Source: Candidatus Babeliales bacterium
Lineage (GTDB): Bacteria; Babelota; Babeliae; Babelales; JACPOV01
Direction of reading: 5' to 3'
Length of the DNA stretch: 64,000 bases
NCBI GenBank assembly: GCA_050250855.1
Contig: JBFWNW010000003.1
Coordinates: forward strand, 96,001 to 160,000
The notes under the pieces: generated by a model
Seen by the model: the letters and a program-made list of their open reading frames with translations, nothing else
Told to the model about the DNA's origin: nothing
Database searches by the model: none
Shown here: positions 46,010 through 46,456 of the stretch, in pieces
Position numbering within the stretch: position 1 is the first letter of the stretch
How the letters are laid out: every line of letters begins with the position of its first letter
Made by a program: the position numbers and the translations under genes

Positions 46010-46456
46010 TTACTTATTATCTGAACTATTTGAAGAAGTTGCAATATGAGGATTTAGTAGCTTAATAGATAATTCAAGGTTATTGGTATCAAAAGTATCC
46101 ACGACATTTGCCACTGTTTTATCATCTGAAAGAGAATCACTTCTACTTTTTACAAATCCACCAAATACAGCAAAGCCGCTAAAGCCTTCATTTTTAGTAG
46201 CAACAAGCCTTTGCTGCCCAGTTGGAATACCTTCTCTGTCATACAGCTTATTTTTGATATCCCCAATAGTTGTATTTTGATCATATTCAAATAAAGCTGT
46301 TGTTTGTGGATGACTAACAAAAATTATCTTAGGCGGCTGAGCCGTTTGTATAACTTGTAGAGCAGCTTGCAAAGTTTTTGGATTTTTTTTAGGTTCCATG
46401 CTATACAATACAGAAGTGGTCACAAAAACAGTTATACAAATTAGTTTTTTATTCAT
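46010..46456 (-). CDS. Secreted ubiquitin-like protein
   Basis: TIGDIKNKLYDREGIPTGQQRLV vs ubiquitin [23 protein letters not shown]; signal peptide ...LYS-MEP. Confidence 0.78.
   Translation of the reverse strand: MNKKLICITVFVTTSVLYSMEPKKNPKTLQAALQVIQTAQPPKIIFVSHPQTTALFEYDQNTTIGDIKNKLYDREGIPTGQQRLVATKNEGFSGFAVFGGFVKSRSDSLSDDKTVANVVDTFDTNNLELSIKLLNPHIATSSNSSDNK

Follow-up and report, generated by a model that had tools for sequence, protein, structure and literature searches.

We examined a 64,000-nucleotide stretch of DNA from a Candidatus Babeliales bacterium (assembly GCA_050250855.1, contig JBFWNW010000003.1, positions 96,001 to 160,000), here called the window. It lies on contig 3 of a genome of 1,218,285 bp in 11 contigs, 95% complete and with ~35% G+C. 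One gene of the window, at 46010..46456, encodes a small protein with a signal-peptide-like N-terminus and a ubiquitin fold. On the evidence of sequence and structural model, the core of this protein is a diverged descendant of eukaryotic ubiquitin. The protein belongs to a patchily distributed family that, as far as searched, is restricted to Babeliales/Dependentiae, within the 261 genomes covered. We lean towards reading it as a secreted, non-conjugatable effector that would act by non-covalent binding in the host.

Ubiquitin homology and predicted fold

The gene had been described before, from the letters of the DNA alone, as encoding a secreted, eukaryote-like ubiquitin. We refer to this description as the original prediction. 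All of the protein strings that it quoted are present in the translation of 46010..46456. Two of the checks that it named, a search with the Pfam ubiquitin hidden Markov model and a prediction of the beta-grasp fold, came out in its favour. The protein scored 26.7 bits against PF00240, where the curated cut-off is 25.4 (E 4.6e-6), with residues 45-85 matching profile positions 1-42 of 72. In genome-wide profile searches the gene was the sole PF00240 match in the 1.218-Mb genome. It was also the sole match to a family profile, built from an alignment (A1) of 11 family sequences including the window sequence. Searching the PDB with phmmer returned single ubiquitin chains at ~24 bits (E ~3e-4). 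With the 11-sequence profile, single ubiquitin chains scored ~40 bits (E 1e-9 to 4e-9) over ubiquitin residues 2-47. The most ubiquitin-like stretch, TTIGDIKNKLYDREGIPTGQQRLV, is identical to ubiquitin residues 12-44 at 15 of 33 positions. The signature TI..(I/V)K......EGIP..QQRL is retained from ubiquitin. No NCBIfam or PADLOC model matched the window protein.

The C-terminal half was left unaligned by HMMER and was recovered by structure comparison. AlphaFold2, given the single sequence, returned an unusable model (mean predicted local distance difference test score, pLDDT, of 35.7). Supplied with A1, it reached a mean pLDDT of 75.6, with 65 residues at a value of at least 90. The predicted order is helix 26-38, b1 43-48, b2 53-58, helix 64-75, b3 82-88, loop, b4 104-105, helix 115-122 and b5 126-131, the last three elements having pLDDT 86-96. 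This is a complete predicted beta-grasp, b1-b2-helix-b3-(loop)-b4-helix-b5. All Foldseek matches listed against the PDB (50 distinct entries) were ubiquitin or engineered ubiquitin. Their E-values started at 1.4e-5, with probability 1.00, 26-29% identity and, for single-domain chains, a target-normalised template modelling (TM) score of 0.7-0.8. In a VIA-align search of 48,161 representative chains, ubiquitin aligned at Z 11.0-11.8, with a root mean square deviation of ~2.0 A over 71-74 residues and 32-34% identity. SUMO, ISG15, FAT10, Rad23 and other ubiquitin-like (UBL) domains gave Z ~10 and 8-19% identity; Fubi (24%) and Dsk2 (23%) were intermediate. The Foldseek and VIA-align alignments cover model residues 41-136, and the separate model of this protein in the ESM Atlas likewise resembles ubiquitin-like clusters (TM 0.65-0.76 by query). 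Because the model and the structural matches recover what the sequence methods miss, we conclude that the C-terminal half completes the ubiquitin fold. In these model comparisons, ubiquitin proper is the nearest known relative.

The layout of the protein and of related features is given in Table 1. Consistent with the original prediction, the N-terminus is Sec-like by inspection. Cleavage would probably occur before Met20 (..LYS/ME), and the orthologue in a congener (genome G001) has the same signal-peptide-like layout. The linker that follows carries a ..W-V/A.. motif in most relatives in our alignments. An insertion near the AGKQ loop had also been claimed, and is present. Between the equivalents of Ile44 and Leu50, where ubiquitin has five residues (F45-Q49, including Lys48), the window protein has 23. 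The chain end runs ...LSIKLLNPHIATSSNSSDNK, without a terminal Gly-Gly; the tail LLNPHIATSSNSSDNK holds no Gly at all.

Table 1. Coordinates of the ubiquitin-fold gene, its parts and other features; positions are those of the window unless a contig or locus is named. G000 is the genome that contains the window.
Feature	Position	Strand	Basis or remark
Predicted exported ubiquitin-fold protein, coding sequence, 148 aa	46010..46456	minus	Open reading frame (ORF) list; ATG start, stop codon 46010-46012
Residues 1-19, signal-peptide-like N-terminus: MNKK, ~15 hydrophobic residues, ..LYS	46400..46456	minus	Inspection
S19-M20-E21, example of [AGSC]-Met junction	46394-46402	minus	
Residues 20-42, linker with predicted helix 26-38	46331..46399	minus	AlphaFold2, pLDDT 58-70
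Residues 43-85, N-terminal half of ubiquitin fold (b1, b2, helix 1, b3)	46202..46330	minus	Pfam (residues 45-85); pLDDT 90-97
Residues 86-108 (A86-S108), 23-residue Phe/Gly-rich loop ATKNEGFSGFAVFGGFVKSRSDS	46133..46201	minus	Alignment with ubiquitin unit
Residues 109-133, C-terminal half of ubiquitin fold (b4, short helix, b5: LSDDKTVANVVDTFDTNNLELSIKL)	46058..46132	minus	AlphaFold2
Residues 134-148, polar Ser/Asn-rich tail LNPHIATSSNSSDNK, no glycine	46013..46057	minus	Stands at ubiquitin R74-G75-G76
AAAGGA, Shine-Dalgarno-like motif, 5 nt 5' of ATG	46462..46467	minus	Read from sequence
Promoter-like site TTGAAT, 16 nt, TG-TATATT	46494..46521	minus	Consensus scan of 198-bp upstream intergenic region
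Clostripain-family (Peptidase_C11) protein	43901-45268	minus	Two genes from the ubiquitin-fold gene
Asp/Glu racemase	45210-45974	plus	Flanking gene
P-loop kinase-like protein	46655-47152	plus	Flanking gene
Fic-domain protein	47651-48748	plus	PADLOC model SoFic
Secretin genes (two), frames of 883 and 855 aa	G000 contig 2, 124339-124812 and 129022-129486	plus	~5 kb apart
USP/UCH-type deubiquitinase, 425 aa	G000 contig 4, 56553-57503; L065:1243-2517	minus	PF00443, 151 bits
Near-canonical ubiquitin L005	L005:1372-2382 (G233 contig 9)		Tandem with L027
Near-canonical ubiquitin L027	L027:1141-2232 (G233 contig 9)		Tandem with L005
Near-canonical ubiquitin L006	L006:1417-1992 (G151)		
Near-canonical ubiquitin L007	L007:1126-2181 (G221)		
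Second family copy in congener, 100-aa frame	L061:1495-1794 (G001 contig 27)	minus	1.3 kb from orthologue
Putative cluster of exported orphans around congener orthologue	L034:3706-4173, 4176-4613 and 2150-2935 (G001 contig 27)		No Pfam match

Other features needed for conjugation are also altered. The Lys48 loop has given way to the 23-residue segment, and Phe122 occupies the position of Lys63; Lys27 still has a lysine counterpart, K68. No ThiF-type E1 was found in the genome by a profile search whose control was positive in 14 of 14 genomes. F-box profiles had no match in the genome. Neither had those for E2 (UQ_con), U-box and OTU; the control searches for these three were silent too, so that their blanks are uninformative. 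No E1, E2 or JAB gene adjoins the window gene, and there is none among 77 flanking ORFs at 22 loci (those of 21 relatives and the congener contig). With no Gly-Gly, a replaced Lys48 loop and no E1 or E2 found in the genome, the protein is not conjugatable in the canonical way, as the original prediction had proposed.

Most ubiquitin-binding domains read the Ile44 patch of ubiquitin, formed by Leu8, Ile44, His68 and Val70. In the window protein the equivalents are P50, V85, E128 and S130, and these positions vary across the 28 aligned family members described below. Hence, mimicry of ubiquitin in a general sense is doubtful, and from the sequence it seems unlikely that generic ubiquitin-binding domains would simply read the protein as ubiquitin. 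The suggestion that the protein is aimed at host ubiquitin-binding machinery accordingly found no backing. The best-kept positions are the equivalents of Lys27 (26 of 28), Thr22 (25) and Gln41 (22). In ubiquitin these three residues are buried and belong to the core of the fold.

The long-loop family and near-canonical ubiquitins

Relatives were sought in 261 genomes, the phylum sample and the order sample being of this same size. The Pfam ubiquitin search had matches in 23 of the 261 genomes, many of them open frames of 110-170 aa aligned to profile positions 1-41 only. The family profile also marked 23 of 261 genomes at E<=1e-5, and 19 of the 189 with a completeness of 90% or more and a contamination of 5% or less. 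A few of its weakest matches are near-canonical ubiquitins (G233 contig 9, G221) and not long-loop members. Leaving aside the window genome, four GTDB families have the gene: f1 (1/9 genomes), f3 (4/41), f15 (1/5) and f19 (16/80). In the window genome's own GTDB family, it occurs in one of nine other genomes. Five genomes have two or three copies. The window gene, whose sequence is among the 11 in the profile, matches profile positions 1-127 of 128 (E 6.2e-35).

From 34 matching places we extracted 29 ORFs, omitting two without loci and three that lie in the near-canonical ubiquitins of G233 and G221. All were aligned with a ubiquitin unit except one 75-aa fragment, which was dropped. Of the 28 aligned frames, 27 have a start codon, and internal stops are absent from all 34 profile matches. 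According to a crude rule (K or R in the first 12 residues and a hydrophobic run of at least 9), 23 of the 28 members have a signal-peptide-like N-terminus. In 22, an [AGSC]-Met junction marks the end of the signal, followed in 14 of those by Asp or Glu. With cleavage just before this Met, the mature protein would start Met-Asp/Glu. The junction Met may be the old start codon of a captured gene to which a signal peptide was added upstream.

The segment between b3 and b4 (Ile44 to Leu50 equivalents) is 14-27 residues long, with a median of 18, and holds at least two aromatic residues in 26 of 28 members. Many members have a W-W-T-L-G-like motif in this loop; in the window protein and its orthologue, Phe and Tyr are used in its place. 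The N-terminal half is marked by T..(I/V)K and (E)GIP..QQ.L, and the C-terminal half by (I/V)K..M..Y(N/D)T..F.L. Gly-Gly follows the Arg72 equivalent in 0 of 28. The window protein has all of the features that define the family: the signal-like N-terminus, the N-half and C-half patterns, the aromatic segment and the absence of Gly-Gly.

The congener orthologue has 147 aa and is 56% identical to the window protein in pairwise alignments (60% in local matches). The ratio of nonsynonymous to synonymous substitution rates (dN/dS) is ~0.36 for this pair and 0.29 for a second close pair; the figures are rough because dS is near 1. The window gene is intact and constrained. The second family copy on the congener contig lacks both a start codon and a signal peptide; it is probably a paralogue in decay. 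Around the orthologue, the same contig encodes several small signal-peptide proteins without a Pfam match. It also encodes a 309-aa protein that is ankyrin-like by eye, again without a Pfam match. The locus looks like a small cluster of exported orphans.

Wider searches added little beyond the congener. A two-sequence pattern search had the congener contig as its sole find among 105 pattern matches. Word-indexed protein searches returned only the query itself out of 19 candidates when a single sequence was used, and five proteins of 1057 with A1, which reflects the index and not rarity. An exhaustive search of representatives gave 858 matches at E<=0.001. The 150 listed were polyubiquitins, the query and the congener orthologue (P0003). 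This search could not show the family outside the genomes covered, because the listed polyubiquitins carry summed repeat scores.

Other Babeliales proteins with a signal peptide contain a near-canonical ubiquitin domain (L005, L027, L006 and L007; Table 1). Identity to ubiquitin is 56/70 for L005 and 53/72 for L027, the G233 pair (74-80%), and 44/75 for L006. Like the long-loop family, these proteins belong to the same phylum, have a signal peptide before the ubiquitin domain and lack a free Gly-Gly end. Unlike it, they are closer to ubiquitin, keep a short AGKQ-type loop and have long C-terminal extensions. In two of them the Gly-rich stretches CGGGG and GSGGG directly follow the domain; these might be processing sites.

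The original prediction had also named phylogeny as a check. Our quick maximum-likelihood tree (84 rows, 76 columns) was weakly resolved; its rows included the long-loop family, the near-canonical ubiquitins and canonical ubiquitin. In it, the window gene pairs with the congener orthologue (Shimodaira-Hasegawa-like approximate likelihood ratio test, SH-aLRT, 98, starred). One group takes in 25 of the 28 family rows (SH-aLRT 83, unstarred). Canonical ubiquitin is joined by the near-canonical proteins of G233 and G151 (SH-aLRT 88, unstarred), apart from the long-loop family. The start-less paralogue of the congener does not join that genome's orthologue but falls with copies from other lineages, a pattern suggestive of old paralogy and subsequent loss. 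On the simplest reading, ubiquitin was captured from eukaryotes more than once in the phylum, and the long-loop family is an older capture, later remodelled. The near-canonical ubiquitins look like separate, younger captures. The tree is no proof of any part of this history. As to acquisition from a eukaryote, the claim holds for ancestry. As a recent event in this genome it does not hold, since members of the diverged family in question occur across four GTDB families.

Proposed export and action in the host, and rival explanations

Members of Dependentiae/Babeliales are described as obligate intracellular parasites of amoebae and flagellates (PMC4378268, PMC6561590). The window genome has two secretin genes and, elsewhere, two GspE/PilB-type ATPases; a profile search found no VirB4 in the genome. 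Together these genes suggest a type II or type IV-pilus-like export route. For Chromulinavorax, vesicles have been proposed as a release route, and signal peptides are reported on 44% of coding sequences, including 78% of ankyrin proteins (PMC6561590). In the sequence of events that we envisage, the precursor would cross the inner membrane by the Sec system and lose its signal peptide, probably through a cut before Met20. The folded beta-grasp protein would then exit through the secretin/GspE-type (type II-like) machinery or in vesicles. Once in a host compartment, it would act by non-covalent binding. Judging from conservation, its working surface is most likely the aromatic b3-b4 loop together with the N-terminal helix, not the Ile44 patch.

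A USP/UCH-type deubiquitinase is encoded in the same genome (Table 1). Its catalytic Cys box, QNCGNTCFLNASLQ, lies directly behind a signal peptide, and Cys30, His290 and Asp307 are invariant among eight relatives. By eye, 10 of 11 extracted Babeliales USPs begin in this way, with a signal peptide and then the Cys box. PF00443 is found in 90 of the 261 genomes, often in multiple copies. The substrate of this exported USP exists only in the host, and by analogy this is the strongest pointer to a host-directed role of the ubiquitin-fold protein. Secreted C19 hydrolases, F-box, RING and Ulp1-like proteins have been described for Babela (PMC4378268), and an exported ubiquitin-fold protein fits the phylum's known focus on host ubiquitin signalling. 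Predicting a complex between the ubiquitin-fold domain and the USP catalytic domain of the same genome gave a score of 0.00 and a mark of 0.32; made without controls, this prediction speaks neither for nor against binding. The window also codes for ankyrin-repeat proteins, a TLC ATP/ADP transporter, a Fic protein and a clostripain-like protease (Pfam), which we count as an effector-like accessory setting.

Several points weigh against a host effector. The sequence match to ubiquitin is confined to the N-terminal half, and the Pfam score is 1.3 bits above the cut-off. Model confidence is low in the b3-b4 loop (pLDDT ~55). Since the Ile44 patch is not conserved, no class of host partner can be named. 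The N-terminal signal was assigned by inspection, and it might instead be a membrane anchor that is never cleaved. Both the crossing of the outer membrane and the arrival in the host are steps that we infer, and the evidence for expression and action is computational only. Across the 77 flanking ORFs at 22 loci there is no recurring partner (GNAT, ABC-2 and DUF5674 recur among close kin only), and thus no conserved neighbour points to a pathway. There is no obligate link between the family and USPs either, because PF00443 is present in 11 of the 23 genomes that bear the family, compared with 90 of 261 overall; these genomes are related to each other.

Some of these points would suit a protein that stays in the bacterium and has no host target. 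It would be a beta-grasp adaptor, located in the periplasm or anchored in the inner membrane, that serves for example envelope assembly or the secretion/pilus machinery. The N-terminal signal indicates inner-membrane export only, the Ile44 patch is not kept, and some neighbours in other genomes are OmpA-family, MreC and MurJ proteins. The neighbours are nevertheless heterogeneous and give no consistent signal. A gene in only 23 of 261 genomes, and in one of nine others of its own GTDB family, is unlike a core envelope part; so are lineage-specific paralogues, 56% congener identity and a variable setting. Because of this patchy spread, the paralogues, the divergence and the variable flanks, an effector fits better than a housekeeping envelope component, and we regard an envelope role as unlikely. 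Still less likely is that the gene is a relic, in decay or without function, of a ubiquitin gene gained by horizontal transfer. Strong divergence from ubiquitin and the start-less paralogue in the congener would agree with decay, but 27 of 28 frames have a start, 0 of 34 matches have internal stops, and the rough dN/dS values (~0.36 and 0.29) indicate constraint. A Shine-Dalgarno-like motif stands at the start and the fold is confident once relatives are supplied. Decay is thus very improbable in our judgement.

The original prediction had offered competing bacteria as a second possible target, with BfUbb of Bacteroides fragilis as precedent. BfUbb, like the window protein, has no terminal Gly-Gly. 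A weapon of this type would be secreted and then imported by competitors in the same host cell or habitat, to block an essential protein of their periplasm. The design is the same, a type-I signal peptide and a ubiquitin fold; BfUbb enters competitors via ButCD and targets their periplasmic peptidyl-prolyl isomerase (PMC11467351, PMC5705921). This reading fits an obligate intracellular parasite with a reduced, 1.2-Mb genome less well, however. The window protein is 45% identical to ubiquitin over 33 residues and has a large insertion, whereas BfUbb is 63% identical to human ubiquitin (PMC3352274). Congener divergence and paralogues would fit genes for host interaction equally well. We consider an interbacterial weapon improbable. 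The chance that the protein is a conjugatable modifier of a bacterial Ubl system, be it a Bil/Bub-type Ubl-E1-E2-JAB operon or a ThiS/MoaD-type sulphur carrier, is close to nil. The beta-grasp fold is shared with such modifiers. Against this stand the lack of a C-terminal glycine, the export signal, the missing ThiF E1 in a search with a positive control, the lack of a PADLOC match, and the lack of such genes next to the gene here or at the 21 relatives' loci.

A secreted, non-covalent effector therefore remains the explanation that we favour. A more specific version is possible though doubtful. Here, Dependentiae would have domesticated host ubiquitin repeatedly, and the old capture would have been rebuilt as an adaptor. 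The ubiquitin core would serve as scaffold, with loop and helix as a binding or membrane-inserting surface for a specific host factor. The near-canonical ubiquitins of G233 would, as part of the same proposal, reflect ongoing gene flow from protist hosts. If true, this would be the first ubiquitin-derived effector family in intracellular bacteria, and a natural counterpart of engineered 'ubiquitin variant' binders.

Ubiquitin homologues are rare in bacteria. The nearest parallel is with BfUbb/BoUbb of B. fragilis and B. ovatus, which are likewise secreted with a signal peptide, of eukaryote-type ubiquitin descent and free of conjugation (PMC3352274, PMC11467351). We set the window protein beside them by description, as an analogy and not as a sequence comparison. 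BfUbb has no large insertion. The window protein differs in its 23-residue loop in place of the Lys48 loop, its extra N-terminal helix, its polar tail, its lower identity to ubiquitin (32-34% structurally) and its membership of a multi-lineage family. The bearers differ as well: BfUbb comes from a free-living gut commensal and kills kin, whereas the window gene is carried by an obligate intracellular parasite of protists.

Eukaryotic (PF00240) and viral ubiquitins share with the window protein a homologous core, the same predicted beta-grasp topology and the Thr22, Lys27 and Gln41 equivalents. Unlike them, it consists of one domain behind a signal peptide and is not made as a poly- or fusion precursor; it lacks Gly-Gly, has Phe122 at Lys63, and its Lys48 loop and Ile44 patch are altered. 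Proteins of the Hub1/UBL5 type have a ubiquitin fold without Gly-Gly and act by non-covalent binding. Human Hub1 (chain 4pyu) matches the window model in VIA-align at Z 10.0 with 18% identity. Hub1 is a eukaryotic nuclear protein without signal peptide or long loop, and so this is a functional analogy only. Bil/Bub, ThiS/MoaD and Pup modifiers are cytoplasmic, end in Gly (Gln/Glu for Pup) and adjoin their enzymes; all except Pup have the beta-grasp fold. In contrast, the window protein bears an export signal and lacks a terminal Gly; no E1 was found in its genome, and no such enzyme genes adjoin its own.

No title or abstract that we found describes a ubiquitin homologue in Dependentiae, although a mention in a gene table could be missed. 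The family would be a second, independent setting for bacterial ubiquitin homologues: obligate intracellular parasites of protists, with a diversified exported family and separate near-canonical captures. It would add the modifier fold to a known Dependentiae repertoire for possible interference with host ubiquitin signalling that consists of enzymes (USP, Ulp1-like, F-box, RING). It is also a natural example of ubiquitin freed from conjugation, in which the Gly-Gly tail and Lys48 loop were lost, a loop was gained and the core was kept. Finally, it offers a small, easily expressed protein with which to seek the host targets of an uncultured lineage.

Locus and neighbouring genes

The ubiquitin-fold gene is solitary. 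The gene that ends at 45974 lies convergent to it, and the one that starts at 46655 is transcribed away from it. The 198-bp spacer upstream holds 10 promoter-like sites in a consensus scan, compared with 6.0 +/- 2.7 in shuffles, so that the promoter evidence is weak. A terminator scan found none. The stretch was detected in four DNA runs, three of them landfill metagenomes from one study, among which the source run may be, and one a sediment metagenome (0.23 share); the sequencing runs listed as holding it include no RNA run.

Pfam assigns the neighbours to Asp/Glu racemase, P-loop kinase-like, MazG-like, Fic, APH and clostripain-like protease families. Neither flanking gene had a counterpart in the 95%-complete congener genome with these queries, and hence the region is variable. 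The longest racemase frame has a signal-peptide-like N-terminal extension and a 59-bp overlap with the upstream gene; the true start may be a later MKTIGLLGG. Within the clostripain-family protein, an internal Met precedes a stretch that resembles a signal peptide, MKKIIFALIMNLSCQGFLWA; this protease, too, may be exported. Among PADLOC models, SoFic matched the Fic-domain protein (182 bits, E 5.3e-54), which by that model is a candidate anti-phage defence protein.

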